A stretch of DNA of 64,000 nucleotides from Desulfomonilia bacterium (GTDB lineage: Bacteria > Desulfobacterota > Desulfomonilia > UBA1062), in the NCBI GenBank assembly GCA_050014195.1, contig JBEKDT010000015.1, positions 1-64,000 of the forward strand, read 5' to 3'. The notes below the pieces were generated by a model. The model was given only the letters and a program-made list of their open reading frames with translations, did not search any database and was not told the DNA's origin. This document shows, in pieces, positions 11,417 through 63,549 of this stretch. Made by a program: the position numbers and the translations under genes. Every line of letters begins with the position of its first letter. Position 1 is the first letter of the stretch.

Positions 11417-12361
11417 ATGATCAAATCCAAGAAAATTGTTGCCGACCCTCGGATTTTGTCGGCCCAGGCACAACGTGCCGCATCCGAAAAAGACATTGAT
11501 AAGGCCCTTTGTCTTTTTGATGCATGCATACAGGAATATCTTAAGAGGCAGAAGCCTTTCAAGGCCGTCGCGGTTTCCAAAAAAGCCAAAACGGTGCTCG
11601 GCCCCATCCCCAAGGTCAGTGCGCTTATCATCCGCATGTATACCTTGGTGGGTCTTCTTGGAGATGCGCATCAGGAATACGAATTCGCAGCTTCTTTACT
11701 GAAAAAAAACAATCTGGCCTTTTTTCAGGCCCTGGATGAAGAGGCCTTCATAGACCTGCTCGGGTTCATGGACCTCAAAACGTATCCGAAAGGCAGGGTT
11801 GTCTTGAAGCACCACGACGAAGGGGGTGACGTCTTCGTCGTACTATCCGGATCCTGTGAGGTCATGCGCGATGCACAAAGGCTCGGGGTCATGGTGGCGG
11901 GGGATCTGTTCGGGGAGATAGGTTTCTTCGCACAGACAGCCCGCAGCGCAACGGTGAAGACCCTGGAAAAGAGCATGCTCGTAAGGATTCCGTCAGATCC
12001 GCTCCACCGGCTCAAAGAACAACATTTATGCCTGCGGCAGATACTCGAGAGCATATACAGCGAGCGTATTCTAAAAAAGGTAACTGAAGACCTGGTATCG
12101 GATAAACCCCTCACACCCACTCCGGAAGTTATTACAACGATATACTATACAAAGGGACAGGACATACCCGTCAACCCTAAGGACAGCATGGCTATTATTA
12201 AACACGGGATTGTGGAGGTGGACTATGACGACATGTACCTCGTCAGGAAACAATATCTGAAGCCCGGCGCTGTCATCTCACACAAAAGGGCCCGCGCACG
12301 GGCCAGCACCGATGTGGTGATCCTTCTCACAAAGGCAATGCACAAGGCAAAGCAGGCATAA
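11417..12361 (+). CDS. Cyclic nucleotide-binding domain protein
   Basis: GDLFGEIGFFAQTARSATV phosphate-binding cassette; a degenerate second cNMP-like segment near the C-terminus. Confidence 0.85.
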   Translation: MIKSKKIVADPRILSAQAQRAASEKDIDKALCLFDACIQEYLKRQKPFKAVAVSKKAKTVLGPIPKVSALIIRMYTLVGLLGDAHQEYEFAASLLKKNNLAFFQALDEEAFIDLLGFMDLKTYPKGRVVLKHHDEGGDVFVVLSGSCEVMRDAQRLGVMVAGDLFGEIGFFAQTARSATVKTLEKSMLVRIPSDPLHRLKEQHLCLRQILESIYSERILKKVTEDLVSDKPLTPTPEVITTIYYTKGQDIPVNPKDSMAIIKHGIVEVDYDDMYLVRKQYLKPGAVISHKRARARASTDVVILLTKAMHKAKQA

Positions 12362-12426
12362 CAGCAGTAAGGGGATATCCAAATTTAGATCATATTTATA
12401 AAAGAAATTTGAGATTTCATATCTTC

Positions 12427-12609
12427 TTGTCCTTTCTTTTGGTGCCAAAAGAAAGGACCAAAGAAAAAGCACCCCGCGAACCCGCCCTTCGGGTGCGTTC
12501 GCTCGCTTGGAAAATTCAGGCAGCGGCTAACTCGCTTCGCTCGAACATGAGCCGCTTTTTCCCTGAATTTTCCTTCACTCGCTCACCGGGTTCAAGGGGA
12601 AAAGAAAAC
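12427..12609. repeat. Structured ~185 bp element, left copy (inverted relative to 15759-15958)
   Basis: Terminal palindrome GTCCTTTCTTTTGG-TG-CCAAAAGAAAGGAC, internal stem GGAAAATTCAGG/CCTGAATTTTCC; aligns along its length with the reverse complement of 15759-15958. Confidence 0.88.
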
Positions 12610-12619
12610 CCATACTCGT

Positions 12620-12647
12620 TGTCATTCCGAGCGACAGCGAGGAATCT
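12620..12647. repeat. GTCATTCC...GGAATCT short palindromic repeat (single copy in window)
   Basis: tgtcattccgagcgacagcgaggaatct, a widespread intergenic palindromic repeat type recognised from memory. Confidence 0.55.
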
Positions 12648-12786
12648 TTCTTTGACTGGAAAATTTTGAGAATAGAGAGTATTTATTCAGCAGTGGAATA
12701 GTCATGCAACCATGATCCCTCCAACACACCATACAGGAAACAACAGCACGCATGTGAACTGAATATCGGGATATATTGCAATCGTG

Positions 12787-12838
12787 CTTCGGATAACTAA
12801 TTATCTGAAGCAAAAGTGCAGTATAGTTATTGTTAGAC
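12787..12838 (+). other. Putative attI site (crossover G|TTAGAC at 12832)
   Basis: GTTAGAC is the exact complement of the R'' box (GTCTAAC) of the first attC; no attC precedes it, but a CTTCGGATAA-ctaa-TTATCTGAAG palindrome and an AT-rich spacer do. Confidence 0.65.
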
Positions 12839-12864
12839 GCCAAGTGATCTTATTAGGGGATGCA

Positions 12865-13449
12865 ATGACGGGTTCGGGTCAGTCGTGGAAAAACAATGAG
12901 CAACTGAATTGGGAGTATGGCGATCTGCGTCTGCGCGCTTTACGCTACGTCTACAGTGCTGGCGGTGGCATGCAAGCGATTAGCCTTCGGGGACATCTAC
13001 TCCTCGACATCGCAGTCACGCAACTGTTGCTTGCGAACGAGGCTTTCGATGTCGGAGAAGTGACACACATACCGTTCTGGCGAAAGGTCAAGACAGTTGC
13101 AGAATACGGTCTGATCTCCCCGGACATCAGATCCACCCTATCTGATATCGCCCGAATCCGGAATGCTCACGCCCATGAGTTGGAGACATACTCTACATTC
13201 CGGCAGGTGCATGCTCTCTGGGTGCGTGCACGGGAAGCCGGCATTGAACATCGGTTCAAATCGAATGATGAGGAGGTAGAAATGACTCGGCGTATCACAG
13301 CGATGGGAGAGTTGGCTGACCGCCTCTTCGACCCGGCGACCGAGATGGCGGAGCTATGCGTCGAGTTGTTTTCCCATATTGTGTTTTGGAATTACGGCTT
13401 CTTCGACCTCGTGGGTTTGGGAAGGACATTGGCTGATACTAAGTGGTGA
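12865..13449 (+). CDS. Cassette 1: HEPN-motif (MtlR/DUF4145-like) protein
   Basis: ATG after GGGGA inside the cassette; F..KV..A...GLI.......L..I.RIRNAHAH contains the HEPN Rx4H motif. Confidence 0.65.
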   Translation: MTGSGQSWKNNEQLNWEYGDLRLRALRYVYSAGGGMQAISLRGHLLLDIAVTQLLLANEAFDVGEVTHIPFWRKVKTVAEYGLISPDIRSTLSDIARIRNAHAHELETYSTFRQVHALWVRAREAGIEHRFKSNDEEVEMTRRITAMGELADRLFDPATEMAELCVELFSHIVFWNYGFFDLVGLGRTLADTKW

Positions 13450-13481
13450 TAGCAGCAGTTAGGAAGTGAGCGAGGAAAAGC

Positions 13482-13547
13482 GTCTAACCACAGCATGCAG
13501 ACGGACGCGGACTGCCGCCCGCGCCGCTGATGCTGGTCGTGTTGGAC
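13482..13547 (+). other. attC site 1
   Basis: GTCTAAC-cacagcatgcagacggacgcggactgccgcccgcgccgctgatgctggtcgt-GTTGGAC: R''/R' boxes and an imperfect inverted repeat. Confidence 0.88.
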
Positions 13548-13570
13548 CTCAGATGATTTGAGGAAGGCAA

Positions 13571-14647
13571 ATGCTAAAGATCGGCAAGACAGACACGTTT
13601 GAGAGAGAGTATATGTCCAGATTTCGCCTTATCGCTGGCAAGTTTGGCGAGTTTGTCAGTTATGAGCGCGACAGAGGTGCCAGAGATATCGGGCTTCACC
13701 TGACCAGGAGGACAACGGAAGGCGAGGAACGGTTGTCTTCCTCGCTCGTATGGTTTCAGATGAAGGGCCTTATGTCCGGTTCAGTCTCATCGGCTGAATT
13801 TAGAAAGTCCACAGACCTTAAGTTGTCTCTGCAGGTGCTTCATCTCAAGTATTGGTTTCTTCAACCGATGCCCACGTACCTAGTTGTCTACGTGGAGAGC
13901 GTGGATACGTTTCTGATACTGAATATTCAGGACTACATAGGCAAGAAATGGGGCAAGGACATACTGAAGCTCAGTCAGGAAACAGCCAATGTCGCTGTTC
14001 CGACCAATAGCACTTTGGATGAACAGGCCTTCAGGCTCATACTAACGGCAAATGACGTAAAGGAATGGCAGAAAGTGCTCGACGCTGATGATGACCGAAG
14101 CGTTCGACTCTGTAGGCGAGACTACAACCTTATCTGGCAAATAGGAACCGCTGAGGAACGTCGGGTCGAACATGTGATCCTGTTCTGGGACTGGCAGTCA
14201 AAGACACGAAGTCAGTTCTATATCAAGGAGAGAAAGCTCGGCGAAAAGGACTGGATTACACTCAGGGAGCACTGGCAATTCATGATGAATATCGGGCACC
14301 TTGAGGATGCGTATCCGTACTTGGAGCTATACTCCCTTGACGACCAGGAATCGTATGAAGATGATGACGAGAATGAAGACGAAGAAGACGACTTCTTGGC
14401 GGCCCTAGGGTTTGGCGACTACGTAAACTCGGACGAATTCAGATACAGGCTCTCCAATGGAGAGGTAGTCTGTGGAGCTGATCGTTGCGGAGAGCTTATA
14501 GAATATACCATTGGTGTGCGTCTTAACGAAATGGGCGTCGAAATGTTGGAGTGGGTGCGCACCCTTGAACAAGTAGGGCTTGTCCAAGTGCAGCCCGATA
14601 AGTCCGAATGGATCAGTGTGGCGCCGTGGCACCATAAATCTGTGTAA
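13571..14647 (+). CDS. Cassette 2: DUF4365-like PD-(D/E)xK nuclease-domain protein
   Basis: N-terminal RD.G.RDIGLHL...VWFQMKG...HLKYW...PTYLVVY pattern; GAGGAAGG RBS; acidic low-complexity stretch. Confidence 0.65.
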   Translation: MLKIGKTDTFEREYMSRFRLIAGKFGEFVSYERDRGARDIGLHLTRRTTEGEERLSSSLVWFQMKGLMSGSVSSAEFRKSTDLKLSLQVLHLKYWFLQPMPTYLVVYVESVDTFLILNIQDYIGKKWGKDILKLSQETANVAVPTNSTLDEQAFRLILTANDVKEWQKVLDADDDRSVRLCRRDYNLIWQIGTAEERRVEHVILFWDWQSKTRSQFYIKERKLGEKDWITLREHWQFMMNIGHLEDAYPYLELYSLDDQESYEDDDENEDEEDDFLAALGFGDYVNSDEFRYRLSNGEVVCGADRCGELIEYTIGVRLNEMGVEMLEWVRTLEQVGLVQVQPDKSEWISVAPWHHKSV

Positions 14648-14650
14648 AGG

Positions 14651-14721
14651 GTCCAACAAAGCACTGCAAATCGGACTGGCTCCAGCTTCGCTTCCGCCAG
14701 CCGGTGAGCGCCCCGTTAAGT
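14651..14721 (+). other. attC site 2
   Basis: GTCCAAC...gcactgcaaatcggactggctccagcttcgcttccgccagccggtgagcgcccc...GTTAAGT; GTCCAAC is the exact complement of GTTGGAC at this cassette's start. Confidence 0.88.
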
Positions 14722-14771
14722 TTTGGCTGAGGAACCGGCACACATATAAAATGAAGATAGGATAATTAATC

Positions 14772-15632
14772 ATGGAAGGGAAAATAGTAATAACAAATTA
14801 TCTTGGGGCATTTGTGATATTCCTTACTTGGTTTGTAACCGCTTATTTATCTGGATGGGTTTTTAATAAAGAAGGAGGCTACAATAAGGCTATTCTGATA
14901 GTTAATTTGGTTCTTCTGTTAGCTCTCTTCATTGGAGCAACAATAAACAGCTCAATAGGATTATCACAGAGCAGTGAACAGAAAGTAAATGATGAAAAAT
15001 TGGCTCCAACAAGAGAAATAGTAGTACGTAGTCTTGTTAGAGCATACTGCTCATCTTTTAATGCAGCTTATTGGATAATGGATTTCAATTATCAGCATAA
15101 TGATCTTCAAAATAAGGATAAGGTTAAAGGTAAATCAATTTTTCTAGAGAGACCTTTGAGAGACTTAATAAGTCTACAGAAGAGCATACAGATAAACAAT
15201 GCAGCCTTAGGTCCTGATTTAATGCCAAGCATATCAACTTTCGTATATTCCTCTGAAAATTTATTAAGGGAACTTCAGTATTATTTATTAATACATAGTG
15301 ATGAGTATGCAAAATGTGATTTTGTGACAGAGCCACCTTTCAATGAATTGAAGACAATGGAAAATATTGCGAATAGTCTAAGAAAAAATTATGGAAGGTT
15401 ATTTAAAGATAAAAAAGTATTTTACCCTACCCCCAAAACATATTTAGAAATTAAAAAGGCATGGGAAAAAGCAGCAGTAGAAACGGGCAGGTTATATTTT
15501 GATCTTGATAGCTATGAAACAAAAAAGGATAAAGTTTTATTCATTTATAATATTGATAACATGAGAGCAATACCCGGAGATAAATTGAAAGATGGGGTGA
15601 AAGCAATAGTTTATGATCCGAATCAGGGATAA
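14772..15632 (+). CDS. Cassette 3: hypothetical protein with two N-terminal TM helices
   Basis: 286-aa ORF, visibly much more AT-rich than the host, two hydrophobic N-terminal segments; no family recognised. Confidence 0.75.
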   Translation: MEGKIVITNYLGAFVIFLTWFVTAYLSGWVFNKEGGYNKAILIVNLVLLLALFIGATINSSIGLSQSSEQKVNDEKLAPTREIVVRSLVRAYCSSFNAAYWIMDFNYQHNDLQNKDKVKGKSIFLERPLRDLISLQKSIQINNAALGPDLMPSISTFVYSSENLLRELQYYLLIHSDEYAKCDFVTEPPFNELKTMENIANSLRKNYGRLFKDKKVFYPTPKTYLEIKKAWEKAAVETGRLYFDLDSYETKKDKVLFIYNIDNMRAIPGDKLKDGVKAIVYDPNQG

Positions 15633-15706
15633 AAATAACAGGGAGTGATAAAAAGGAATGGTCAAGCTGAATAACTGATTGTCTAAATGAAACCCAAGCA
15701 GATAAA

Positions 15707-15765
15707 GCCCAACCATCCACTTCAGCCGACCGGCTACGCCGCGCGGCTGAAGCGCAGCGTTTTGT
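15707..15765 (+). other. attC site 3 (terminal; R' degenerate GTTTTGT)
   Basis: GCCCAAC-catccacttcagccgaccggctacgccgcgcggctgaagcgcagc-GTT; stem cttcagccg/cggctgaag. Confidence 0.8.
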
Positions 15766-15958
15766 CTTTACTCCCCCTTGAACCCGGTGAGCGAGTGCAG
15801 GAAAATCCGGGGAAAAGCGTTTCCTGTTTGAGCGGAGTGAAACGGAGCGAGTTAAACGCGACCCGGATTTTCCCAGCGAGGGAACGCACCCTTTAGGGCG
15901 GGTTCAGGGGGTGCCTTTTCTTTGGTTACTTTCTTTTTGCACAAAAAGAAAGTAACAA
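15759..15958. repeat. Structured ~200 bp element, right copy (inverted relative to 12427-12609)
   Basis: ccccttgaacccggtgagcgagtg...GGAAAATCCGGG/CCCGGATTTTCC stem...terminal palindrome GTTACTTTCTTTTTG-CA-CAAAAAGAAAGTAAC. Confidence 0.88.
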
Positions 15959-16045
15959 TAAATATGTTATGTTACGCTAAAATTCCTATCCCGGCGAATG
16001 CATACGGTCGGGGGTGACACCTAGTTATGCAATTACCTCTCCCAG

Positions 16046-16777
16046 CTAAATGACCCCTGCGGCGCAGGCCATGACGATGCCGGCCGCCACGGCAACATTT
16101 AAGGATTCCGTCCTGCCCCTCATGGGGATGGCTACGGTATCATGCGCGATATCGAGGATTTCCCTGCTGATGCCGAAAGCCTCCTGGCCGAGGCATATGG
16201 CCACCTTCGGATCAAAGAGATTCGTTGAAAGCCTTTCCCGGCCCTGAGAAGTAAGGGCAAGGATTCGATGTGGAAGCCGCCTCAGGTCATCGGCAATGCA
16301 GCGGGCAATCCGGATGCCCAGGCATGAGCCCATGGAGGCCCGTACGGCCTTGGACGAGAAGGGGCTCGCCGTGCCCTCAATGACGATCATGCCGGTAAAC
16401 CCGAAGGCCTCGGCCGTCCGGACGATGGTGCCTACATTCCCGGGGTCCTGGAGCCCGTCGAGGATGACCACGTGGCCCTGTTCCATGATCTCTTCCATGC
16501 CTGCCCATGGGATGTCGAAGAATGCCAGGATGCCCTGGGGCGTCTCGGTTTCACTGATGCCGGCAAAGAGCTTGTCGGACATAACCACATCGGGGGATAA
16601 AGAAAGGCTGTGATCTTCGAGAAAACCTTGGGTGACAGCCATCATCCTCGGGGTAATGCCCCTCGAGACGGCATCTTCAAAAAGCCTCCTGCCCTCCAGC
16701 AGCATAACCCCCTTGTCCTTCTTCAGGTCGGAGAGCACCTTGTACGCGGGGTTATGTCTGCTGGTGAGCGTCTGCAT
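16046..16777 (-). CDS. TrmH/SpoU family RNA methyltransferase
   Basis: LQDPGNVGTIVRTAEAFG, GQEAFG, IPMRGRTESLNVAVAAG. Confidence 0.93.
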   Translation of the reverse strand: MQTLTSRHNPAYKVLSDLKKDKGVMLLEGRRLFEDAVSRGITPRMMAVTQGFLEDHSLSLSPDVVMSDKLFAGISETETPQGILAFFDIPWAGMEEIMEQGHVVILDGLQDPGNVGTIVRTAEAFGFTGMIVIEGTASPFSSKAVRASMGSCLGIRIARCIADDLRRLPHRILALTSQGRERLSTNLFDPKVAICLGQEAFGISREILDIAHDTVAIPMRGRTESLNVAVAAGIVMACAAGVI

Positions 16778-19361: not shown

Positions 19362-20000
19362 GTGCAAATATTCGTTGCCGATATCCATCTCAGGCCGGAT
19401 TCTAAAGAAGAGGCCGCCAGATTCATCTCATGGCTCTTAAAGGCCGTTCGCGATGCAGATGGGATCTACATCCTGGGCGATCTCTTTGACTACTGGTATA
19501 CGGGCCTGGAAGAACGGTTCCACGATGTGATCGAAGCACTTCGATCCCCCAAAGTCCATCTGATGCCGGGAAACCGGGACTTCCTCTTGAAGAATTCCAG
19601 CCTGCCGGGTGTTACGATCATACGCACCGAGGAGATTTTCATCACGATAGGTGATAGTAAAGTCCTTCTCGCGCACGGACATACACTCACCGAGGCCGAT
19701 GCCGGGTTCAGACTGCTGCACAGATATGGATGGCCCCTCTTTGAGCGCATCGATCAATGGTTGCCGCCTTCCCTCAAGGAACTCTGCGCCAGGGCTCTTG
19801 TGCAATCTTCTGCTGTCATCCGCCCGTTATCAGTTGAAATCCGCCGGAACATTGAAGAAGAAAAAGGCGTGGACACAGTAATCTGCGGCCATCTCCACCG
19901 ATACATCACAGAAAAAGGCCTTATCGTATTGCCGGCCTTCCATGACAGCGGGTCATGGCTTGCCTGGGATGAGTCAGGGCCGCATCTGTATACTCTCTAA
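19362..20000 (+). CDS. lpxH: UDP-2,3-diacylglucosamine hydrolase (LpxH-like metallophosphoesterase)
   Basis: DIH, LGDLFD, GNRD, HG, GHLH motifs; GTG start at 19362. Confidence 0.75.
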   Translation: MQIFVADIHLRPDSKEEAARFISWLLKAVRDADGIYILGDLFDYWYTGLEERFHDVIEALRSPKVHLMPGNRDFLLKNSSLPGVTIIRTEEIFITIGDSKVLLAHGHTLTEADAGFRLLHRYGWPLFERIDQWLPPSLKELCARALVQSSAVIRPLSVEIRRNIEEEKGVDTVICGHLHRYITEKGLIVLPAFHDSGSWLAWDESGPHLYTL

Positions 20001-20110
20001 AGAATCGCCGGAAGCGGTTCTACAAACCCGCATGCCTGTTGGCCTACTGATCCCCCTCTTAAGTCAAACGCTGCGCTGAGTTTCACCTACGAAACCCTAC
20101 GACGGTGCTG

Positions 20111-20135
20111 GTCGCGGCTTCAAGCCGCTCCTACA
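20111..20135. repeat. GTAG-type REP
   Basis: gtcgcggcttcaagccgctcctaca. Confidence 0.75.
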
Positions 20136-20159
20136 CCCAATCTACCTGTTCTGGCGAGA

Positions 20160-21314
20160 CTACCCCGACAGTGCGATCTTGGCGATCATGGGCGCTGCGA
20201 TGAATACGCCTATGGTGCTTCCCAGGTTGGCCATGAAGAAGACCAGCAGAATCCTGGCAATGGGGTTTTTCCACCAGCCCTTCAACGAGAGGATATCGTC
20301 ATGGATCGTCTCAAAGTCAGATACTTTTGGCTTCTTCAGATATGCCTCGCTTAAGCCTGCAAACCATCCAGAGGGGACCGTGTGAACGATGGTCGTTATG
20401 GGGGAGACGAGTGCTGCAATGATCACCGTCACCGGGTGGGCAAGGGCAAGGATCGTGGCTAATGCAGTGCAGACCATGGTGGAGACCACCCACCACTTGA
20501 TCATATCATAGCCCTGCTTGGGGCTGCCGTAAAAGAATACGGAAACTATCACGGCAAGTATGGAAAGCGGGATAATCCATTTTATAAGGCCGGCCCTCTT
20601 CGGAGGGACCTCTTCAAGCCGCGCCAGATCTTCCACGGGATGGTCTAGCTGGCCCATGAGCCCATGCATGTGGCCCGCCCCTATGACTGCAAGCACCTTG
20701 CCTGTTGAGATATCCGCCAGCTTACGGGCCATGTAGGCGTCGCGCTCATCGATGAGCACCTCTTTAATCGTGGGGGCGTACTTGGCCATCTCCTCCACCG
20801 CAGTGGTGAGCACATCCTTTTCTTTGAGCTTTTCAATATCCTTTTCATCGATCTCTTCAGCCTCGAAGATAGCGAGGAGCGCTGCATAGATCAGCTTCAT
20901 CTTCTTCCACAAGGAGAGTCCCCGCCATGCCCGTGCCAGGGTGATCTGGACGTTCCTGTCCACAAGCACTACCTCGATGCCTAAAGCCTTGGCCTCCTCG
21001 ATGGCAGCCCGCATCTCGTCACCCGGCTTGACCCCGAGCTTTTCACCAATACGCCTCTGGAAGGAAGACATCACGAGGCTGGCCATGAGAAAGGCCGCCT
21101 TCTTCTCTTTTACGACCTTGAAGATATCCATGTTCTGCCAGGCTAAGGGATTCATCATGACATCATAACGGGCCTGACACAGCTCGACAGCCACGGTATC
21201 AGGCCTGGCCTCCCGGATGGCGGACCGGACTTCCTCAACAGAGGTCTTGGAAACGTGTGCAGTGCCTACAATAATGATCTCTTTGCCCGACAGTTGTATC
21301 TTCTCAATAGACAT
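20160..21314 (-). CDS. TraB/PrgY/GumN family protein
   Basis: VGTAHVS, VAVELC..R, PGDEM, LIDERDAYM, IGAGH, C-terminal TM region. Confidence 0.92.
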   Translation of the reverse strand: MSIEKIQLSGKEIIIVGTAHVSKTSVEEVRSAIREARPDTVAVELCQARYDVMMNPLAWQNMDIFKVVKEKKAAFLMASLVMSSFQRRIGEKLGVKPGDEMRAAIEEAKALGIEVVLVDRNVQITLARAWRGLSLWKKMKLIYAALLAIFEAEEIDEKDIEKLKEKDVLTTAVEEMAKYAPTIKEVLIDERDAYMARKLADISTGKVLAVIGAGHMHGLMGQLDHPVEDLARLEEVPPKRAGLIKWIIPLSILAVIVSVFFYGSPKQGYDMIKWWVVSTMVCTALATILALAHPVTVIIAALVSPITTIVHTVPSGWFAGLSEAYLKKPKVSDFETIHDDILSLKGWWKNPIARILLVFFMANLGSTIGVFIAAPMIAKIALSG

Positions 21315-21355: not shown

Positions 21356-21856
21356 TCATTTTCTCAAAAAGACAAGCTCGGAGAGTTCCTTCCTCTGAGG
21401 ATTGCCGAAAATCGGCTCGGCAGGGTAGCCCAGGGCGATCACCGCCATGAGCTCATAGGCTGCCGGCGCTTCAAGAAGGAGCTTAAGCTCTTTTTCACTT
21501 TTCAGGATCTCCCCCAGCCACACTCCCCCGAGCCCAAGCGCGTGGACCTCCAGGAGCATGTTCTGGATACAGGCCCCGACGGCCTGCACATCCTTGGTAT
21601 GGTGATAGCTGGTGGCGGTATCAAGGAAAACTGAAATGAGCACGTCGGAGCCCTGAACGACCTTGCCGTAGCGGGTCAGCCCGCTCACCATATCCTTGAG
21701 GTTTTTATCTCGGATGACGGCAAACCTCCAGGGTTGGTTGTTCATGCCCGAGGGGGCATACCTTCCCGCCTCCAGTATCTCATTGACCAGATCATCACCG
21801 ACCTCTTTGTCTGTGAAGGCCCGTATACTCCTGCGGGTCTTAATGAGATCCAGCAT
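21356..21856 (-). CDS. Nitroreductase family protein
   Basis: RRSIRAF, APSGMNNQPWRF, LGLGGVW, ALGYP; ATG at 21856. Confidence 0.92.
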   Translation of the reverse strand: MLDLIKTRRSIRAFTDKEVGDDLVNEILEAGRYAPSGMNNQPWRFAVIRDKNLKDMVSGLTRYGKVVQGSDVLISVFLDTATSYHHTKDVQAVGACIQNMLLEVHALGLGGVWLGEILKSEKELKLLLEAPAAYELMAVIALGYPAEPIFGNPQRKELSELVFLRK

Positions 21857-22965
21857 GTGCTCCTTCCTTGGTGGATGCATTATTGATAAGGTATGCATCG
21901 ATAAATGCCGAGATGTCGCCGTCCAGCACCGCACTGACATTACCCACCTCAAGATTTGTGCGGTGGTCCTTAACGAGCTGGTAGGGCTGCAGGACATAGG
22001 AACGTATTTGTGAGCCCCAGGCAATATCCTTCTTGCCCTTAGAAAACTCGTTCATGCGCTCCTTCTGCTTCATCTCCTCCAGCTCATAGAGCTTTGATGC
22101 CAAGAGCTTCATGGCAAAGGCCTTGTTCTTGTGCTGGGAGCGCTCGTTCTGACACTGGACAACGGTATTCGTGGGCAGGTGGGTGATCCTTACGGCCGAG
22201 TCGGTCTTGTTCACGTGCTGGCCCCCATGGCCCGAAGCACGATAGGTGTCTATCCGCAAGTCTTTCTCATCGATGTTGATGTCTATGTTCTGGTCCACCT
22301 CGGGTGTTGCGAGCACGGAGGCGAAGGATGTGTGCCTCCGTTTGTTGGCATCATAGGGCGATATGCGTACCAGCCTGTGGACGCCTGTCTCTCCCTTGAG
22401 ATAGCCGTAGGCCCACTGGCCCGATATCTCGACGGTAGCGTGCTTGATGCCGGCCTCTTCATCGGATGATATATCGATGATCCTGGCGGTGTAGTTGTTC
22501 ATCTCCGCCCACCTGAGGTACATGCGCAGCAGCATCTCCGCCCAATCCTGGGCCTCCAGGCCCCCGGCGCCTGCATGTATCTCCAGGAAGGCCCCCTTCG
22601 CATCATCGCGGCCCGAGAGCACATGTGCCTTTTCAATTGAATTGATATGCTTTTCAAGCTGCTTGAGGGTGTCTGTGATATCGGAGATAACGCCTTGCTC
22701 GTCATCCTTGGCAAGCTCTAAGAGGACCTGCAGGTCCTCCCAGTGTGTCGAAACCATCCGCCATTGCGAAAGGATTCCGGTGATCCTGGATTTTTCCGAC
22801 TGGAGGTCCCTGGTCTTTGATGGGTCTTTCCAGACTTCAGGCTGGATCAGGAGGGTTTCTATCTCAGAAAGCCTTTTCTCGCGTAAAGGGATTTCAAAGA
22901 TACCCCCTCATGGCGCCCAGGCGTTCGCCGATTTCTCCTATCTGTTGCTGGTAATCTGCTATCAT
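21840..22965 (-). CDS. prfB: Peptide chain release factor 2 with +1 programmed frameshift (join 22965-22897, 22895-21840)
   Basis: First 23 codons MIADY...MRGYL end in AGGGGG-tat-CTT-TGA; the +1 frame continues to SPY and GGQ motifs. Confidence 0.97.
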
Positions 22966-32372: not shown

Positions 32373-34235
32373 CTACAAATTACCCTTACCATCCTTGCGC
32401 ATCTTTACAGCCAACTGTACTGCCTGCAGCCCGGCCGGTGTCATGCCCTCGATGCGTTCGGCCTGGCCTAGTGTGGCCGGCCTGATCTCTTCAAGCCTGC
32501 ATTTGAGCTCATTGGAGAGACCCTGGATGCCTGCAAAGTTGAGACCTACTGGAATCTTCATGCGCTCAAGCTCTTTGAGCTTCACGATCTCTTTAAGCTG
32601 CCTATCGATGTATCCCTCGTACTTTATCTCCACCTCGGTCTCCACTTCAGCAAGGGATGAGACAGGGGGAATCAGTGCATGGTGTTTGAAATCACCTAAA
32701 GTGACCTCGGGTCTCTTAAGCAGCCGCTCCAGGGTAATGCGCTCCTGGTCGTTACCGCGTGTGGGGGCAAACTCGGGCATGTCATGAGGGATGATGACGA
32801 AAGTCTTCTGCAGATGACCATGTAAGGCAGCGATCTCGTCCTTAATGTCGCAGACCCTTTCAAAGCGTTTCCTATCGATGAGCCCGAGCCTTAAGGCCTC
32901 TTCGCTCAGCCTGAATACGGCATTGGTCTCCCTGAGCATGAGCCGGTATTCGGCCCGGGAGGTGAACATGCGGTAGGGCTCGGTCGTGCCCCTGGTGACC
33001 AGGTCGTCTATCATGACGGCTATGTAGGCCTCAGACCTGTCCAGGATGAAAGGCTCCTCTCTCTTGATGCCAAGGGCGGCATTGATCCCTGCCATGATGC
33101 CCTGACCTGCGGCCTCCTCATAGCCGGATGTGCCGTTTACCTGGCCTGCCAGGTACAGGCCCTGCACGAGTTTGGTCTCTAAGGTCCGCAGGAGCTGGGT
33201 GGGCTTAACATATTCGTACTCTATGGCATATGCAGGCCTGATGATCTCCGCCTTCTCCAGACCCGGCACGGAGCGTACGATCTTGAACTGGAGCTCCACA
33301 GGCAGGCTGTTGCCCAGACCTGAGGCGTAGACCTCTTTGGTGTTGATGCCCTCGGGCTCGATAATGACCTGGTGCCCCTCCCTCTCACCGAACCGCATGA
33401 CCTTGTCCTCCAAGGACGGACAATATCTGGCAGGTGTCCCGGTGATGGCACCCGAGTACAGCGGGCTCAAAGAGATGTTGTTCCGGATAATCTCATGGGT
33501 CAGGGATGTGGTCCTGGTAAGATAGCATGAAACCTGGGGAAGACGCCCCCTCGATGAGGTAAAGCCGAAGGCCATACAGCCCGCCTCCGGGTCCTGTTTT
33601 TGGAGGGAGGAGAGGTCAATCGTATCCCGGTGTAGCCTGGGTGGAGTGCCGGTCTTGAGCCTTCCCAGGGAGAATCCCAAGGTCTTGAGAGACTCCGAGA
33701 GCTCATAGGATCCTTCCTCGCCTGCCCTGCCGGCAGGTATGCGTATCTGACCGATGTGTATGAGCCCCGAGAGGAATGTGCCGGTAGTGATGATCACGGC
33801 CTTGGCACCATAGACCATGCCGGTGCGGTCCCTGACCCCCGTGACGCGGCCATTTTTAACTTCAACAGCATCAATGCGCGCCTGGCGGATATGGATACCC
33901 GAGTCCTCCACCCTCGCCTTGACCGCGGCCTCGTACATCCTTCGATCATTCTGGGTTCTGGTGGCCCTCACGGCAGGGCCCTTCTTGGTGTTGAGAACGC
34001 GGTACTGGATGGCCGTTTCATCCGCCACTTCACCCATGATGCCGCCCAACGCGTCGACCTCCTTGACCAGGTGGCTCTTGGCAAGCCCGCCGATGGAAGG
34101 GCTGCAAGGCATCCTGCCCACGGTGTCCATGTTGAGGGTGAACAGGGCGACATTCAGTCCGAGTCTATGCGCGGCCAGGGCCGCCTCCACTCCTGCATGT
34201 CCGCCGCCCACTACGATGATGTCGAAGTCTTCCAT
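32373..34235 (-). CDS. mnmG: tRNA uridine-5-carboxymethylaminomethyl modification enzyme MnmG/GidA
   Basis: GGGHAG.EAA, LKTGTPPR, RYCPSLEDK, AGQVNGTSGYEEAA, EPYRMFTSRAEYRL. Confidence 0.98.
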   Translation of the reverse strand: MEDFDIIVVGGGHAGVEAALAAHRLGLNVALFTLNMDTVGRMPCSPSIGGLAKSHLVKEVDALGGIMGEVADETAIQYRVLNTKKGPAVRATRTQNDRRMYEAAVKARVEDSGIHIRQARIDAVEVKNGRVTGVRDRTGMVYGAKAVIITTGTFLSGLIHIGQIRIPAGRAGEEGSYELSESLKTLGFSLGRLKTGTPPRLHRDTIDLSSLQKQDPEAGCMAFGFTSSRGRLPQVSCYLTRTTSLTHEIIRNNISLSPLYSGAITGTPARYCPSLEDKVMRFGEREGHQVIIEPEGINTKEVYASGLGNSLPVELQFKIVRSVPGLEKAEIIRPAYAIEYEYVKPTQLLRTLETKLVQGLYLAGQVNGTSGYEEAAGQGIMAGINAALGIKREEPFILDRSEAYIAVMIDDLVTRGTTEPYRMFTSRAEYRLMLRETNAVFRLSEEALRLGLIDRKRFERVCDIKDEIAALHGHLQKTFVIIPHDMPEFAPTRGNDQERITLERLLKRPEVTLGDFKHHALIPPVSSLAEVETEVEIKYEGYIDRQLKEIVKLKELERMKIPVGLNFAGIQGLSNELKCRLEEIRPATLGQAERIEGMTPAGLQAVQLAVKMRKDGKGNL

Positions 34236-43898: not shown

Positions 43899-45233
43899 AT
43901 GAAGAGGATTCTCATAGCCAACAGGGGCGAGGTGGTCTTGCGCGTCATCAGGACGGCCCGTGAGCTGGGGTTGGAAACCATCGTGGTCTATTCAGAGGCC
44001 GATAAGGACATGGAGTACCTGAACTTCGCCGACGAGGCGGTAAAGATCGGCCCCGAGCAGCCCTCTAAGAGCTACCTCAATATCGATGCCATCATCTCTG
44101 CGGCCCTGGCATGGAAGGCCAACGCCATCCACCCCGGTTACGGTTTCCTCTCGGAGAACCCCCAGTTCGCCTTTCTCTGCGAGGAGAACGGGATCGAGTT
44201 CATAGGGCCTACGAGTGCCACCCTTCGGACCATCGGCAACAAGTCCCGGACAAAGGAGGTTGCCAGGTCGCTGAACATACCCACCATCCCGGGATCTTAT
44301 GGAGTGGTTGCCGACATCGGACAGACTATCCTCCTAGCCCAGGACCTCGGCTTTCCCGTGATCCTCAAGTCGCTGTACGGCGGAGGCGGCAGGGGGATGA
44401 AGGTGGCATTCTCCGATGATCAGCTGAGACAGCACTTTGCCAGCGTGAGCAGCGAGGCAAGCGCAGCATTCGGCCGTAATGAGGTCTACATTGAGCACTA
44501 CATCGCATCGCCGCGACACCTGGAAGTCCAGGTCCTGGCCGATGCATATGGGAACATCAGAATCTTCAGCGACCGCGAGTGCTCTATCCAGAGGCGCCAC
44601 CAGAAGATCATCGAGGAGGCACCCATCTCCAATATCGATGAAGACCTGCGGCAGAACCTCTGGGAATGGTCGAGACAGATCATCCAGGCCATTGCATTCA
44701 AGGGCCTTGGCACTGTGGAGTTTCTCATGGATCAGGAAGGGAAGATCTTCTTCCTCGAGATCAACGGCAGGCTCCAGGTGGAACACCCGGTTACAGAGAT
44801 GATTACCGGCATCGACATGATTCGCGAGCAGATCATGATCGCAGCGGGTGCCCATATAGAACCGTCTCCTGTCATCATCACGGGGCATGCCATCGAATGT
44901 CGGATCAATGCAGAGAATCCGTCAAAGAATTTCATGCCCACTACGGGTACCATCACAAGACTGCGGCTGCCGAGCGGCCCGGGTGCGCGTGTGGATACGC
45001 ACCTCTTCCCCGGCTGCATCGTGACCCCGTTCTACGACCCCCTGCTCGTGAAGCTCATCGCCCTCCACACCACGCGCGATGGGGCTTTACGCCGCATGGA
45101 CAGGATGCTGGACGAGACCATCATCGAGGGACTCACGACCAACAAGGACCTGCTCTACAAGTTGCTCAACCATGATAGTTTTCTCTCGGGTAACGGGGAC
45201 ACATCTCTTGTGACACAGCTGCTCAATAAGTGA
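43899..45233 (+). CDS. accC: Biotin carboxylase
   Basis: ILIANRGE, HPGYGFLSEN, GGGGRGM, RECSIQRRHQK, RLQVEHPVTE. Confidence 0.9.
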   Translation: MKRILIANRGEVVLRVIRTARELGLETIVVYSEADKDMEYLNFADEAVKIGPEQPSKSYLNIDAIISAALAWKANAIHPGYGFLSENPQFAFLCEENGIEFIGPTSATLRTIGNKSRTKEVARSLNIPTIPGSYGVVADIGQTILLAQDLGFPVILKSLYGGGGRGMKVAFSDDQLRQHFASVSSEASAAFGRNEVYIEHYIASPRHLEVQVLADAYGNIRIFSDRECSIQRRHQKIIEEAPISNIDEDLRQNLWEWSRQIIQAIAFKGLGTVEFLMDQEGKIFFLEINGRLQVEHPVTEMITGIDMIREQIMIAAGAHIEPSPVIITGHAIECRINAENPSKNFMPTTGTITRLRLPSGPGARVDTHLFPGCIVTPFYDPLLVKLIALHTTRDGALRRMDRMLDETIIEGLTTNKDLLYKLLNHDSFLSGNGDTSLVTQLLNK

Positions 45234-45309
45234 TCAGAAGCTTTCTTCAAACGGTTCAGGGATTAAAATGCCTGAGGTCGCACATGTGTTCCCGACATAC
45301 TCTTAAATC

Positions 45310-45536
45310 ATAGTAACGCAGACTCAGATCATTGAGGAGCACACAAAGAGTAATATCTTACCACGAAGAGCACGAAGGACACGAAGAAAGAAAGCCTTTT
45401 GAAATAGCTGACCGGTTCAATGGATCCTAGAGTGTTTGTTCTGGTTTTTTAGATCATCTTCGTGCTCTTCGTGTCCTTCGTGGTGAGAAAAGAATTAGGA
45501 TGCAAACCATAAAAATATGCTTCAAGGAGAAGAACC
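45310..45536. repeat. ~230 bp element with inverted CACGAAGRR nonamer arrays, copy A
   Basis: accacgaagagcacgaaggacacgaag (45360-45386) faces cttcgtgctcttcgtgtccttcgtggt (45458-45484); flanks align to the reverse complement of 51641-51940. Confidence 0.85.
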
Positions 45537-45570
45537 TAAAACTTTGAAGGATACGCTCTTGAGGTTGCCC

Positions 45571-45609
45571 AAAAAAATCACGAGCCGGTTACTCGCCCGG
45601 CTCGTGATT
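45571..45609 (-). terminator. Rho-independent terminator of the leftward small-protein operon
   Basis: Minus strand AATCACGAGCCGG-loop-CCGGCTCGTGATT followed by a T-run. Confidence 0.8.
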
Positions 45610-45663
45610 CTGTTTGGTGCGATACTGTTATGATATTCTCTTGTACCGGCTGGAGGCAATTTC

Positions 45664-45930
45664 CTATGCCTGATGATGAGTTATCCTTGATCTGTTAATC
45701 TGCTCTCGTGTCTTGGCGAAATCCATATATATTCTCGCAATGCACAACGATATTGCCAATACAAATAACCCAAGCATGAATGCCGGCTCGGTGTTGAACT
45801 GTACATCTATCCATCGACCGACAAACAGGAACAGGAATGAGGAGATAACCAGGGTGAAGCTCCACGCACTCATTAATATGATATGGTTCAGATTCTTGTT
45901 CGTGAGCTTGTTTCTTCGAACCCTTTTCAT
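45664..45930 (-). CDS. AtpZ/AtpI (ATPase gene 1)-like two-TM protein, copy 1
   Basis: GRWIDVQFNTEPAFMLGL matches the G.W.D..F.T.P.F...GL signature; AAGGAGG RBS. Confidence 0.75.
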   Translation of the reverse strand: MKRVRRNKLTNKNLNHIILMSAWSFTLVISSFLFLFVGRWIDVQFNTEPAFMLGLFVLAISLCIARIYMDFAKTREQINRSRITHHQA

Positions 45931-46010
45931 CGCTGTTACCTCCTTTCCTTCTTTTCCCGCCCGTACCCCGTTAGGGAAGGGGCGGGATAACCTTACCTCT
46001 TAAGATCTTC

Positions 46011-46286
46011 TCAGCTCACCAGGCCCTTCACTGCTTCGATCACCGGGGCGGTGAACAGGGCAACCAGCACTGCATACAGTGCAAAGGACCCGACTGCCTC
46101 GCTGAGGTACATCCTCGGATAACGGTATTTCAGGGAAATGATGGTGAGCCCGCCCATGATCAGGCAGCCAAGGTGGAAGTAGGGGAAGTTCCCGCCGCCG
46201 GAAGTCTCTGCCGCTGCAAAGGCAAAGGTACCGGTGATCATCACCACGAACATCGCTACGATTATTGTCTGAATTGTCCTTTTCAT
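46011..46286 (-). CDS. Small membrane protein with signal peptide (paralog of 47151-47327)
   Basis: AAGGAGG RBS 8 nt before ATG; signal peptide ending AFA; two TM segments. Confidence 0.75.
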   Translation of the reverse strand: MKRTIQTIIVAMFVVMITGTFAFAAAETSGGGNFPYFHLGCLIMGGLTIISLKYRYPRMYLSEAVGSFALYAVLVALFTAPVIEAVKGLVS

Positions 46287-46328
46287 TGTCATTGCCTCCT
46301 TCATGATTGCTTGATGCTTATAGATAAG

Positions 46329-46343
46329 GCAAGCCCCGTGCCA
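46329..46343 (-). promoter_or_regulatory. Sigma54 -24/-12 promoter (leftward operon)
   Basis: TGGCAC-GGGGC-TTGC, exact consensus spacing. Confidence 0.88.
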
Positions 46344-46372
46344 AGTGTGCTGGATCAGCGATGAATACCTTA

Positions 46373-46385
46373 TAACATATTGATA
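46373..46385 (-). promoter_or_regulatory. IHF binding site
   Basis: TATCAATATGTTA matches WATCAANNNNTTR, about 30 bp upstream of the sigma54 promoter. Confidence 0.65.
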
Positions 46386-46547
46386 TCGAATCCATTTAAC
46401 TGAATATCCACTCAATAATCGCATGCCTCAATCCCTAAGAAAACCGGGATTCATTAAAAAAAACGTTGAGAGGTATTCAATGAAACGTTTAATCCGGTCC
46501 CTCTTGACAGACCACATTTTCAACCTTCACCCTTGACTCTCTTCAGC

Positions 46548-46856
46548 ATGAATGTCATGCCTGCCGCTATCAGGGAAAGAATGGGACTGCTCCCTAACCT
46601 TTTCGATGACAGGAGGCGAAATAGTAGGCTTCATGTCGACAAGACCGTATCCTGCATTCGCAATGGGGATGAAATGCAGACCGCACATCTGATCAATATC
46701 AGCAGGAGCGGTATGTATGTTGAGATCGATACCCCGTCTGATATCGGGCAGGAGATGTTCATCAACCTTACCGAGAGAAACCTCGGGGTGTTTACGCGGG
46801 TGAAAGGGCGGGTGATGAGGAGATCTGAAAGGGGTATGGCTATCCGGTTCATCTGA
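46548..46856 (+). CDS. PilZ domain protein
   Basis: RxxxR (DRRRNSR) and NISRSG motifs, GMAIRF end. Confidence 0.85.
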   Translation: MNVMPAAIRERMGLLPNLFDDRRRNSRLHVDKTVSCIRNGDEMQTAHLINISRSGMYVEIDTPSDIGQEMFINLTERNLGVFTRVKGRVMRRSERGMAIRFI

Positions 46857-46929
46857 CCGGCCCCTGGCTTGCAGGTTATGTTCCAAGATCAAGGCCTTAA
46901 ACCTTAGCGGGGCATTCTTTTATGTCCTT

Positions 46930-47024
46930 TGCCACTTTGTCACATTTTGACCATGGTTACCCTACGGTTTTGCCACTTTGTTCATGCCCGGTATCTTCAT
47001 TGATGCACTTGTGCCATTTTGGCA
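46930..47024. promoter_or_regulatory. Three phased candidate enhancer-binding-protein sites
   Basis: TGCCActtTGTCA (46930), TGCCActtTGTtc (46971), TGCCAtttTGGCA (47012), spaced exactly 41 bp. Confidence 0.6.
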
Positions 47025-47059
47025 AAAATATGGTGCGAGAGAATATTTATAGTTAGTAT

Positions 47060-47072
47060 AATCATTGAGTTA
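47060..47072 (+). promoter_or_regulatory. Probable IHF site
   Basis: AATCATTGAGTTA (one mismatch to WATCAANNNNTTR) between the enhancer sites and the promoter. Confidence 0.5.
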
Positions 47073-47087
47073 TAAACCATGATCATC

Positions 47088-47102
47088 TGGCACGGCCCTT
47101 GC
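47088..47102 (+). promoter_or_regulatory. Sigma54 -24/-12 promoter (rightward operon)
   Basis: TGGCAC-GGCCC-TTGC followed by CTTAT, as in the leftward promoter. Confidence 0.88.
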
Positions 47103-47150
47103 CTTATGTTAGATAGAAAGAAAAAAACAAACCCCAAGGAGGGTAAGACA

Positions 47151-47327
47151 ATGATGACATTATGGATCGTTCTCGGCGCACTGTTCATGACCGGCATAGG
47201 CATCAGGTTCACCTACAAGGTCCTTGGACTCACCCCGGCCGAAGCAACCGCAGTGTTCGTCCTGGTGGTCACCCTGATCGGCATCAACACCGGCCCGGCA
47301 CGCGAGATCCTCATGAACCTGTTCTAA
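47151..47327 (+). CDS. Small two-TM membrane protein (paralog of 46011-46286)
   Basis: AAGGAGGG RBS; 58 aa hydrophobic; aligns with the leftward protein. Confidence 0.75.
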   Translation: MMTLWIVLGALFMTGIGIRFTYKVLGLTPAEATAVFVLVVTLIGINTGPAREILMNLF

Positions 47328-47366
47328 GGCTTCTGCGGGATAGCAAAACGGATAAGGAGGAAGGCC

Positions 47367-47606
47367 ATGAAACGGATAAAGACAAAGAAAGAGAAGATCG
47401 AAAGGGCACTGGCCAACAGGCTCAGCAGGATCAGCGCATACAGTCTGGTGCTCGTTACGATGACCTTCCTCGGGCTGTACGGTGGGATGGAGCTTGACAA
47501 GATGACGGGCATGACGCCCAACTTCACCTTTGTCTGCCTGATCGTCGGCATCGCCCTGGGCTTCAAGGGCTTCATCCAGGAAGTCATCGCAGAGAGAAAG
47601 GCGTAA
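47367..47606 (+). CDS. AtpZ/AtpI-like two-TM protein, copy 2
   Basis: GMELDKMTGMTPNFTFVCLIVGIALG signature; AAGGAGG RBS. Confidence 0.78.
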   Translation: MKRIKTKKEKIERALANRLSRISAYSLVLVTMTFLGLYGGMELDKMTGMTPNFTFVCLIVGIALGFKGFIQEVIAERKA

Positions 47607-62287: not shown

Positions 62288-63549
62288 GGGCTGTGGAAAG
62301 TTGGGATCAAGTTTCTATCGGTGGATTAGTTAATCTTATTAATGGATTTGCTTTCCCTTCGAAAGGATTCACTGAGGGAGAAGGAATACCACTCATCCGA
62401 ATTCGTGACCTCGAACGTCAAAAGACAGAAGTCAATTTCCGAGGCAAATATAACGACCGCTACCTCGTAAAGAGAGATGATCTCTTGATTGGTATGGATG
62501 GTGATTTCCTGACCGTTAAATGGAAAGGAAACGATGCCCTATTAAATCAACGACTCTGCAAGCTGATAACCAAGAATCCAGAAAGTCTTGTTCAAGATTT
62601 TCTTTTCTACAGGATCATTGAGGAGATCCTTCGCATTCACCGCATCACAGCCGCTACGACTGTTAAGCATCTATCTTCGAAAGATGTTCTTGGGATAGAG
62701 ATAGATCTACCTCCCAAGCATGAACAAACTAAAATCGCCGAGATACTCTCGACCGTGGACCGTGCGATTGAACAGACCGAGGTGTTGATTGCCAAGCAGC
62801 AGCGCATCAAGACCGGCCTGATGCATGACCTCCTCACTCGCGGCATCGACAAACACGGCAACCTCCGCTCCGAACAAACTCACCGATTCAAAGACTCCCC
62901 GCTGGGCAGGATTCCGGTCGAATGGGAGGTAGAAAAATGGAGTCATGTTTGTAGTAAAATTCAAGATGGTACGCACTTCTCACCACGAACCGACTCGTCC
63001 GCAGAGTTTAAGTATGTAACATCGAAGAATATCAAATTCGGATTTTTGGATCTGTCTGATGTTGAATATATAGATAAAAGACAGCACGATGAAATATACA
63101 AGAGATGCGATGTATGTCATGGAGACGTACTACTCACGAAAGATGGTGCAAACACAGGTAATTCTGCCATTAATTTTCTGAAAGAAGAGTTTAGCCTCTT
63201 GTCTAGCGTTGCCCTCATCCGACCATTGGAGAACAAACTAACATCAATGTTTTTGCTCCAAACAATTTTGAGCGAAAACGGACAACAGCTTATTAAAGAT
63301 GCAATGTCCGGCCTTGCGATTACCCGGGTTACATTGGAAATTATCAACAACTTTTTAATAAAGATCCCTCCTATCAAGGAGCAAAAAAGCATAGGACAAT
63401 TCCTTGCATTGCAGGATGAGCGAATCAAATTAGATGCAAAAAAACTCGCCAAACTCCGCTCCCTTAAAATAGCTCTCATGCAAGACCTGCTCACCGGCAA
63501 AAAGCGCGTCACTGCCCTGCTCAACGATATGGAGGTTGCATCTCTATGA
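62284..63549 (+). CDS. hsdS: Type I restriction-modification specificity subunit
   Basis: Two AT-rich TRDs separated by conserved P...EQ..I...K.GLM.DLLT repeats; LGRIP.EWE. Confidence 0.95.

Follow-up and report, generated by a model that had tools for sequence, protein, structure and literature searches.

How does an array of gene cassettes come to lie among bacterial housekeeping genes with an insertion site ahead of it, no integrase gene beside it and a copy of the same non-coding repeat, in inverted orientation, at either end? The question is raised by a block at positions 12418–15966 of a 64 kb stretch of contig JBEKDT010000015.1 of a Desulfomonilia bacterium (assembly GCA_050014195.1); the whole stretch analysed is called the window below. 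The block consists of two inverted elements enclosing an attI region and three cassettes, each cassette an open reading frame (ORF) followed by an attC site. It probably represents a small, Desulfomonilia-specific family of integrase-less integron platforms that are bounded by long structured inverted repeats and served in trans. The parts of the block are as follows.

12418–12610, + strand: left bounding element, non-coding and structured (nhmmer match 12424–12608, E 2e-55), with an outer perfect hairpin at 12429–12458 and a 24-nt invariant core at 12576–12599.
12611–12832, + strand: putative attI region, type A, ending in the conserved core GCAGTATAGTTATTG; crossover after G12832.
12833–13541, + strand: cassette 1, with ORF 12865–13449 (194 aa, possibly HEPN-like) and attC1 at 13482–13547.
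13542–14715, + strand: cassette 2, with ORF 13571–14647 (358 aa, N-terminal DUF4365) and attC2 at 14651–14721.
14716–15759, + strand: cassette 3, with ORF 14772–15632 (286 aa, N-terminal hydrophobic stretch) and attC3 at 15707–15765.
15759–15775, + strand: right junction, G|TTTTGTCTTTACTCCCC, where the R′ box of the last attC runs straight into the right element's conserved inner tail.
15765–15966, − strand: right bounding element, inverted (nhmmer match 15765–15961, E 1.6e-65), with its outer hairpin at 15925–15956.

A preliminary description of the locus, made from the sequence alone, held that two homologous elements in inverted orientation bracket the block. The alignment bears this out, as the left and right elements are 79% identical over 195 nt by blastn (mean column identity 82%) and inverted with respect to each other. 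The window holds only these two copies, both in a search with a 24-mer and a 19-mer at up to 3 mismatches and by blastn with both copies; none of 100 shuffled controls gave any match in the motif search. The copies differ by 1-nt and 10-nt indels, so the element is not coding. It is built of an outer perfect AT-rich hairpin of 14–15 bp, a 12-bp stem, GGAAAATYCRGG/CCYGRATTTTCC, and an enclosing stem, CCCC..GAACCCG/CGGGTTC..GGGG. Folded as single strands, the left and right elements score z −5.5 and z −5.9 against shuffles, with none of 200 shuffles equal. Over 15 copies of the element, the predicted fold has 96.3% of its cells paired, with compensatory changes at 11 of the 42 pairs. In 500 shuffles these values were never reached, and slid controls are 44–64% paired. 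Selection acts on the fold of the element. The preliminary description had contrasted such hairpin elements with classical terminal inverted repeats. The structured hairpins are there, but the elements are themselves inverted repeats of about 190 nt, so that the unit in effect has very long structured terminal inverted repeats.

Other identities for the element were considered and set aside. It is not a canonical terminator, as the outer hairpin is AT-rich and no T run follows it, and neither a terminator nor a promoter role gave a signal above chance. Nor do the elements qualify as sites of attC kind: in the hairpin GTT comes at the start and AAC at the end, a polarity opposite to that of attC, the GTT is not kept among copies, and the attC model described below gives no match to an element. 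Rfam at gathering thresholds reports a single tRNA in the window and, within 12300–16100 at E values up to 5, only chance-level miRNA and snoRNA rows. A plasmid collection searched with the element plus attI gave no match. The outer end of most copies reads TTATTGT(T), for example at 15957–15966, and resembles the attI core TTATTG|TT (12824–12834); the resemblance may be chance in AT-rich DNA, the GTT being retained in some copies only.

Do the two elements belong to the array, or are they chance neighbors? The contigs of species-representative genomes were scanned once with an exact 20-mer from the invariant core; the window's own genome lies outside this set, where its best match is 92%. Eighteen loci, here given L numbers, were returned. 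Fourteen come from four metagenome-assembled genomes (MAGs; CAWKAM01, CAWCTR01, DATKLV01 and JBEKLI01) labelled Desulfomonilia or 'uncultured delta proteobacterium', and the other four are chance matches of 20–23 nt in two Streptomyces, a Verrucomicrobia MAG and a Pyrinomonadaceae MAG. The 14 loci extend 2 kb to each side of the copies. An nhmmer profile of 15 copies found 19 copies and two fragments in the window and these loci, 64–93% identical to one another. Full or near-full copies number 2 to 5 in each related MAG, and several sit at contig ends; the counts are minimums, since only copies with the exact core were recovered and diverged ones missed. The preliminary description would have been undone by an element so abundant that two inverted copies 3.5 kb apart are expected by chance, and copy numbers this low, in the 64 kb as in the related MAGs, speak against such abundance. 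A spurious-ORF search intended to gauge the spread of the element gave only 6 matches and was uninformative on context.

Mapping of the copies, also proposed in the preliminary description, yielded four complete inverted pairs with cassettes among the 19 copies. In all four the hairpins face outward, with the attI at one side and the last attC at the other.

Window: 3.2 kb between copies, flanked by the cNMP-binding protein gene and trmH.
L004: 0.95 kb between copies, flanked by tatC and a periplasmic binding protein gene.
L017: 0.7 kb between copies, with one cassette, flanked by accC and an AIR-synthase-like gene.
L007 and L005, on one contig: 6.6 kb between copies, flanked by phaE and a class II tRNA synthetase gene.

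The distances from the element ends to the attI core and to the last attC are fixed, and seven further copies each represent one recognisable end of such a unit. This recurrence of one layout in four pairs at different housekeeping sites indicates that the element pairs belong to the array. In a tree of the copies, the left elements of the window and of L008 are nearest relatives (support 97/93); both are accompanied by attI of type A, at different genomic sites. The L007 and L005 copies, two ends of one unit, are mutually nearest at 93%. The left element and the attI type co-vary, a pattern that points to linked inheritance. Left and right elements as separate clades were looked for in the tree and were not seen.

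The attI-like site that had been noticed before cassette 1 proves to have a conserved core of attI type in seven loci. The window's attI region is homologous to stretches beside left-type copies in L008 and L001. Seven of the 19 copies are of the left type (the left copy of the window, L001, L003, L004b, L007, L008 and L017b), and 220–300 nt inward of each lies the core TATAGTWATTG|TT. When the seven loci are aligned on the crossover, identity averages 5.17 of 7 over the 30 nt upstream and 3.46 of 7 downstream. Conservation breaks off exactly at G|TT, where every cassette starts, and the recombination point is the same nucleotide in all seven loci; in the window it reads G|TTAGAC (12832–12838). 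We suggest that this is a putative attI, a double-stranded entry site at which cassettes would be joined at G|TT. The upstream regions form two alignable subtypes, A (window, L008 and L001) and B (L003, L004, L007 and L017). Type B carries TTCTGCAT in two direct copies and one inverted copy. Known attI sites contain several integrase-binding sites, and the repeated motif of type B may be their counterpart. Nested in the type A region is a small repeat, GTCATTCCGAGCGACAGCGAGGAATC (window 12622–12647), also seen in L001 and L008; variants lie near element copies in L005, L012 and L016, and it appears to be a separate short repeat family.

At the opposite end of the units, five of the 19 copies abut a last attC (the right copy of the window, L004a, L006, L010 and L017a), and two more have a right-type tail. 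The tail at the window's right junction also follows unrelated last attCs in L010 and L006 and is present in L016. All four places have the junction (G/A)|TTTTGTCTTTAYYCCCCC, with conserved sequence on the right-hand side of the G and unrelated sequences on the left. We presume that the tail represents what was originally the right half of attI. These junctions are most simply read as derived from an empty ancestral site, ...TATAGTAATTG|TTTTGTCTTTA..., adjoining the right element. No empty left–attI–right unit was found among the loci, all seven attI-bearing copies being occupied.

Three ORFs each ending in an attC had been claimed for the space between, and both the ORFs and the three attC sites were located, the latter within 4 kb and all on the + strand. 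The boxes are GTCTAAC...GTTGGAC in attC1, GTCCAAC...GTTAAGT in attC2 and GCCCAAC...GTTTTGT in attC3. As first reported, the starts of cassettes 1 and 2 are exact complements of their own R″ boxes, 7 of 7 in each case (GTTAGAC/GTCTAAC and GTTGGAC/GTCCAAC). The boundary of cassette 3 agrees at 4 of 7 positions, and on the bottom strand two of its three mismatches become G-T pairs, also as reported, and the third is A-C. In the window and the other loci together, 7 of 10 cassette junctions are exact 7/7 complements and the rest agree at 6/7, 5/7 and 4/7; by our own arithmetic, which assumes boxes that fit the consensus and an exact match in 1 of 16, seven exact junctions have a chance probability of about 5e-7.

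Seven attCs from other genomes (in L003, L004, L006 and L010) served to train a covariance model, which was run over the whole window with filters off. The model ranked attC1 (E 1.8e-10) and attC3 (E 2.9e-4) first and second in the 64 kb, on the right strand and with exact predicted ends. Bottom-strand folding gives −19.1 kcal/mol for attC1, with bulges on the L″ side, and −19.1 kcal/mol for attC3 (z −3.7). An energy scan of the window's + strand at ≤ −13 kcal/mol gave three matches, namely attC1, attC3 and a false one in mnmG (34044–34137); the scan is only moderately specific, with many matches at −10 kcal/mol. The third rank of the covariance model is a hairpin at 45567–45619 (region 45233–45700), just downstream of accC, which is not significant (E 0.46) and also resembles a terminator stem with a T-rich stretch behind it. 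When 12 attCs were aligned with MAFFT and folded with RNAalifold, no structure resulted because the palindromes misalign; a subset of seven worked. The absence of intI, also claimed at the outset, agrees with Pfam, which finds neither PF00589 (integrase) nor a transposase among 52 non-overlapping window ORFs of at least 90 aa, and no integrase remnant occurs in 13 stop-to-stop frames between the cNMP-binding protein gene and cassette 1.

The cargo is mostly anonymous. The protein of cassette 1 has 10 homologues, all unnamed, with an invariant RNAHAH (Rx4H) motif. Its Atlas look-alikes, at 0.93–0.95, are labelled mannitol repressor/MtlR and DUF4145, families that we take to be HEPN-like, and a PDB profile search gave HepS only, as a weak match (E 1.2). 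These give a lead, to be treated as such, that cassette 1 encodes a HEPN-type protein. The cassette 2 protein matches Pfam DUF4365 (E 1.2e-6, 29 bits against a cut-off of 24.3), and the cassette 3 protein has no family in Pfam, NCBIfam, PADLOC or Atlas. PADLOC reports nothing for the three window cassettes and, on 17 ORFs of the other loci, one good match, PDC-S31 in L005, a candidate defence protein. Other units carry a GIY-YIG protein, a DSP-type phosphatase and a TRADD-N-associated transmembrane domain.

The block was described as lying between housekeeping genes, and Pfam agrees. The two flanking genes point their 3′ ends at it.

11417–12361, + strand: gene of a cyclic nucleotide monophosphate (cNMP)-binding protein, left flank.
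16046–16777, − strand: gene of a SpoU/TrmH-type methyltransferase, right flank.

In a related species the orthologous site is locus L010 (contig CAWKAM010000039.1), whose trmH and SPFH genes show 92% identity over 1832 nt. The locus is visible on the attC side only, and an intI at its far end is possible. Its right element is 87–91% identical to that of the window and lies on the same side of trmH. Since the site is occupied in both species, the unit is older than their split. An empty cNMP-protein/trmH junction, which the preliminary description had proposed to seek in relatives, was accordingly not seen. Three or more cassettes are present in L010, where two junctions are exact. Neither its three cassette ORFs nor any of 18 other locus ORFs compared matches a window cassette by blastp or tblastn (24 ORFs in all). 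The cassette content at this site has thus been wholly replaced, and complete replacement in so old a unit requires that a recombination system was active during that time. The trmH stop codon of L010 abuts the element (1830–1840) where the window has an 84-nt spacer (15962–16046), either by deletion or by a slightly different insertion point.

Two further sites were compared. The L017 unit lies directly downstream of an orthologous accC (78% identical), where the window has ORFs with no Pfam family (45713–47497); the window is not usable as an empty site here, as the neighbor gene is not common to both. Two copies in L012 sit between metallophosphoesterase and TraB/PrgY/gumN genes. The syntenic spacer of the window (19982–20173) is element-free and was likewise rejected as an empty site, its intergenic DNA being too diverged to align.

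The remainder of the window is housekeeping in character, with dnaK-grpE-hrcA, argS, lnt, mnmG, dxs, ispH, accC and ftsK. GC content is 53% in the window, 40% in the AT-rich attI stretch (222 nt) and 34% in cassette 3. The right end (59612–63549) carries hsdM and hsdS of a type I restriction-modification system. A release-factor ORF at 21840–22757 (PCRF and RF-1 domains) starts at PCRF profile position 48, and its N-terminus may lie in another frame, which would presumably fit the usual programmed frameshift of prfB. In the spacer downstream of accC (45357–45487), inverted repeats of about 27 nt (ACCACGAAGAGCACGAAGGACACGAAG ... CTTCGTGCTCTTCGTGTCCTTCGTGGT), some 70 nt apart, were spotted by eye. 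Beside or inside the units of other genomes are REP-like (repetitive extragenic palindromic) sequences of the form GTAGGGGCAGCCCTTGTGGCTGCCC, at about 2080–2110 in L008, 255–285 in L011, and 1935–1965 and 2400–2430 in L012, and L012 also carries repeats of the form CCCTCACCCTGTCCCTCTCCC...GGGGCGAGGGGA. Beside the L008 unit, a class III aminotransferase gene (248–1674) is split into overlapping ORFs 248–823 and 820–1674, which could reflect a frameshift, a pseudogene or an assembly error.

How might such a unit work? We propose three parts: an element of about 190 nt whose perfect AT-rich hairpin faces outward; an attI region of 220–300 nt ending in TATAGTWATTG|TT; and a second, inverted element whose inner tail (TTTTGTCTTTA) would have provided the original attI with its right half. 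In this scheme an integron integrase, presumably acting in trans from a gene located elsewhere, would recombine the folded attC bottom strands of circular cassettes with the double-stranded attI at G|TT. Cassettes would accumulate between the attI and the right element and later be lost by attC x attC excision. The structured repeats would be the termini used when the platform spread to several chromosomal sites, by means of an enzyme likewise supplied in trans, which may have been a transposase or a single-strand enzyme that recognises hairpins. Of the non-autonomous mobile unit envisaged in the preliminary description, the attachment of the elements to the array therefore stands, by virtue of the four like pairs, whereas movement as a unit goes beyond the data and is something that we only infer.

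Several observations count against this proposal. On the side of the integrase, there is no intI among the 67 ORFs of at least 70 aa in the 14 loci, and no promoter signal above chance in the attI region (12300–12870). On the side of movement, the same 67 ORFs include no transposase, and no autonomous copy was seen in the 2 kb to either side of the copies; the longest direct repeats where the four pairs meet their flanks measure 5–7 nt, against 4–6 nt in 12 mismatched controls, so that no target-site duplication stands out above chance; and no empty site for a whole unit was found at the sites compared. Any spread is old, as it predates the split from the L010 species and the copies are only 64–93% identical. 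Five of the 19 copies (L002, L011, two in L012 and L018) are without an integron feature in the sequence covered, and the L012 pair (2001–2266 and 2460–2653) is in tandem and in the same orientation, with one copy interrupted by an insertion. In L001 an attI core is present, yet the first ORF is not followed by a recognisable attC. Finally, attC2 is weak: it ranks fourth in the covariance search (E 1.7, not significant alone) and folds no better than shuffles (−10.8 kcal/mol, z +0.65), and its assignment rests on the core boxes, a location 3 nt beyond the stop of the ORF and the 7/7 boundary.

Some of these points would sit comfortably with a history in which a dispersed palindromic repeat, composed of left element, spacer and right element, came first and happened to contain a good secondary site of attG type; the arrays would then be by-products, with no dedicated or mobile platform today. 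The solo and tandem copies, the age of the copies and the want of a target-site duplication are as such a history would have them. So is the abundance in these genomes of other small palindromic repeats nested in the same regions, and insertion of cassettes by integrases is reported at many GTT sites in genomes (bioRxiv 10.1101/2022.09.11.507474). We nevertheless hold this history to be unlikely. No empty left-spacer-right repeat was found, the seven attI-bearing copies all being occupied; the identical nucleotide is used in each of the seven; and the 220–300 nt conserved upstream of the crossover, in two subtypes and with repeated motifs, exceed the minimal attG described in that preprint.

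Alternatively, the elements could be working parts of the array, as structured RNAs or hairpins that insulate it, for example by blocking read-through or stabilising transcripts, or as sites of segment inversion, with units multiplied by duplication or homologous recombination. Such a role would account for covariation that preserves the fold and not sequence alone, for hairpins that face outward in every case, for the stable residence of the unit at trmH and, again, for the lack of target-site duplications. It seems to us improbable all the same, as Rfam gives no match to the elements even at E up to 5, the AT-rich outer hairpin without a T run is no canonical terminator, the two species have the unit facing the same way with respect to trmH, with no sign of inversion, and the arrival of units at unrelated sites is left unexplained. 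We give very little credence to an ordinary decayed chromosomal integron that received two independent insertions of an unrelated repeat. Groups of clustered attC sites that have no integron-integrase (CALINs) are common and of debated origin (PMC4889954, PMC9024848), and the far end of the orthologous L010 array lies outside the visible sequence; but the same layout at four sites, the fixed distances from element ends to attI core and last attC, the mere two copies in 64 kb and the lack of any integrase remnant between the cNMP gene and cassette 1 all disfavour it.

The integrase-less, repeat-bounded platform that we prefer has partial counterparts among known systems. It resembles a CALIN in having two or more neighbouring attCs on the same strand, with R″ (RYYYAAC) and R′ (GTTRRRY) boxes and the boundary signature, no intI nearby and cassettes mostly of unknown function; a complete integron, with intI adjoining attI and a Pc promoter, is not what the window holds. 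Yet the definition of CALINs includes neither attI nor bounding repeats, and they are usually taken for decayed integrons or stray insertions (PMC4889954, PMC9024848), whereas the attI of the window block is conserved, its bounding repeats form a fixed pair and the block recurs as a family. Similar in plan are the MITE-integron-MITE structure (MITE, miniature inverted-repeat transposable element) and the 288-bp integron mobilization unit (IMU), in which two short non-coding repeats bracket an integron part unable to move alone (PMC3575428). Here too a non-coding multi-copy repeat, with 19 copies and four pairs, brackets cargo. Those cases, as that paper presents them, are single captures of class 1 integrons that keep a whole or defective intI1, with target-site duplications or with transposition shown when a transposase was provided in trans. 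The present units, in contrast, have no intI found with them, carry attI inside the repeated module and occupy several chromosomal sites in environmental anaerobes, with no target-site duplication above chance and no transposase found near the copies. The repeat-bounded family is thus a variant of CALINs and of MITE-bounded integrons. In the literature searched, which covered few subscription journals and no supplements, no description of such a repeat-bounded integrase-less family was found.

There are other parallels as well. Class 1 integrons of the Tn402 type that lack tni and keep IRi and IRt share an attI-cassette platform between inverted repeats and a dependence on trans functions (in part, PMC3575428); they differ in having 25-bp ends, intI1 and a 3′ conserved segment, and there is no sequence likeness, nor any match in the plasmid collection. 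Insertion by attC x attG recombination, yielding single attC sites lacking integron-integrases (SALINs) and small CALINs, likewise places cassettes outside a complete integron, at G|TT, by a distant integrase, but the attG sites are described as many, diverse and unlike attI (bioRxiv 10.1101/2022.09.11.507474). In the Desulfomonilia units a single conserved site is reused, with 200–300 nt conserved upstream in two subtypes, and the diversity of sites that marks SALINs is absent. The REP sequences and bacterial interspersed mosaic elements (BIMEs) associated with RAYT, and the palindromic elements derived from IS200/IS605, have structured ends and no coding capacity and are not known to produce a target-site duplication, as here; theirs, however, are hairpins of about 20–40 nt, on one strand at both ends, whereas the present ends are inverted, multi-helix and 190 nt long, and no Y1 or HUH gene was seen.

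What would the units mean for these bacteria? The origin of cassette arrays without an integrase is presented as unsettled (PMC4889954, PMC9024848). In the present case an array carries a conserved attI and fixed structured borders of its own, and the whole package is found at several sites per genome. In the most far-reaching version of our proposal, which we put forward tentatively and regard as possible though doubtful, the units are mobile, hairpin-ended, non-autonomous carriers that seed attI sites round the chromosome, one distant integrase serves many arrays, and the multi-helix ends are handled as folded single strands. If that were true, the spread of the units and attC recombination would be coupled through the single-stranded DNA states that drive the latter, and a hairpin-ended attI carrier would be a concrete origin for a class of CALINs. 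Whatever their mode of spread, the units supply a description of a 190-nt element with strong covariation and a defined, testable attI candidate for an uncultured lineage. If the integrase does act in trans, integron activity in this lineage would be spread over many small platforms and not concentrated in one, and integron counts based on intI would understate it.

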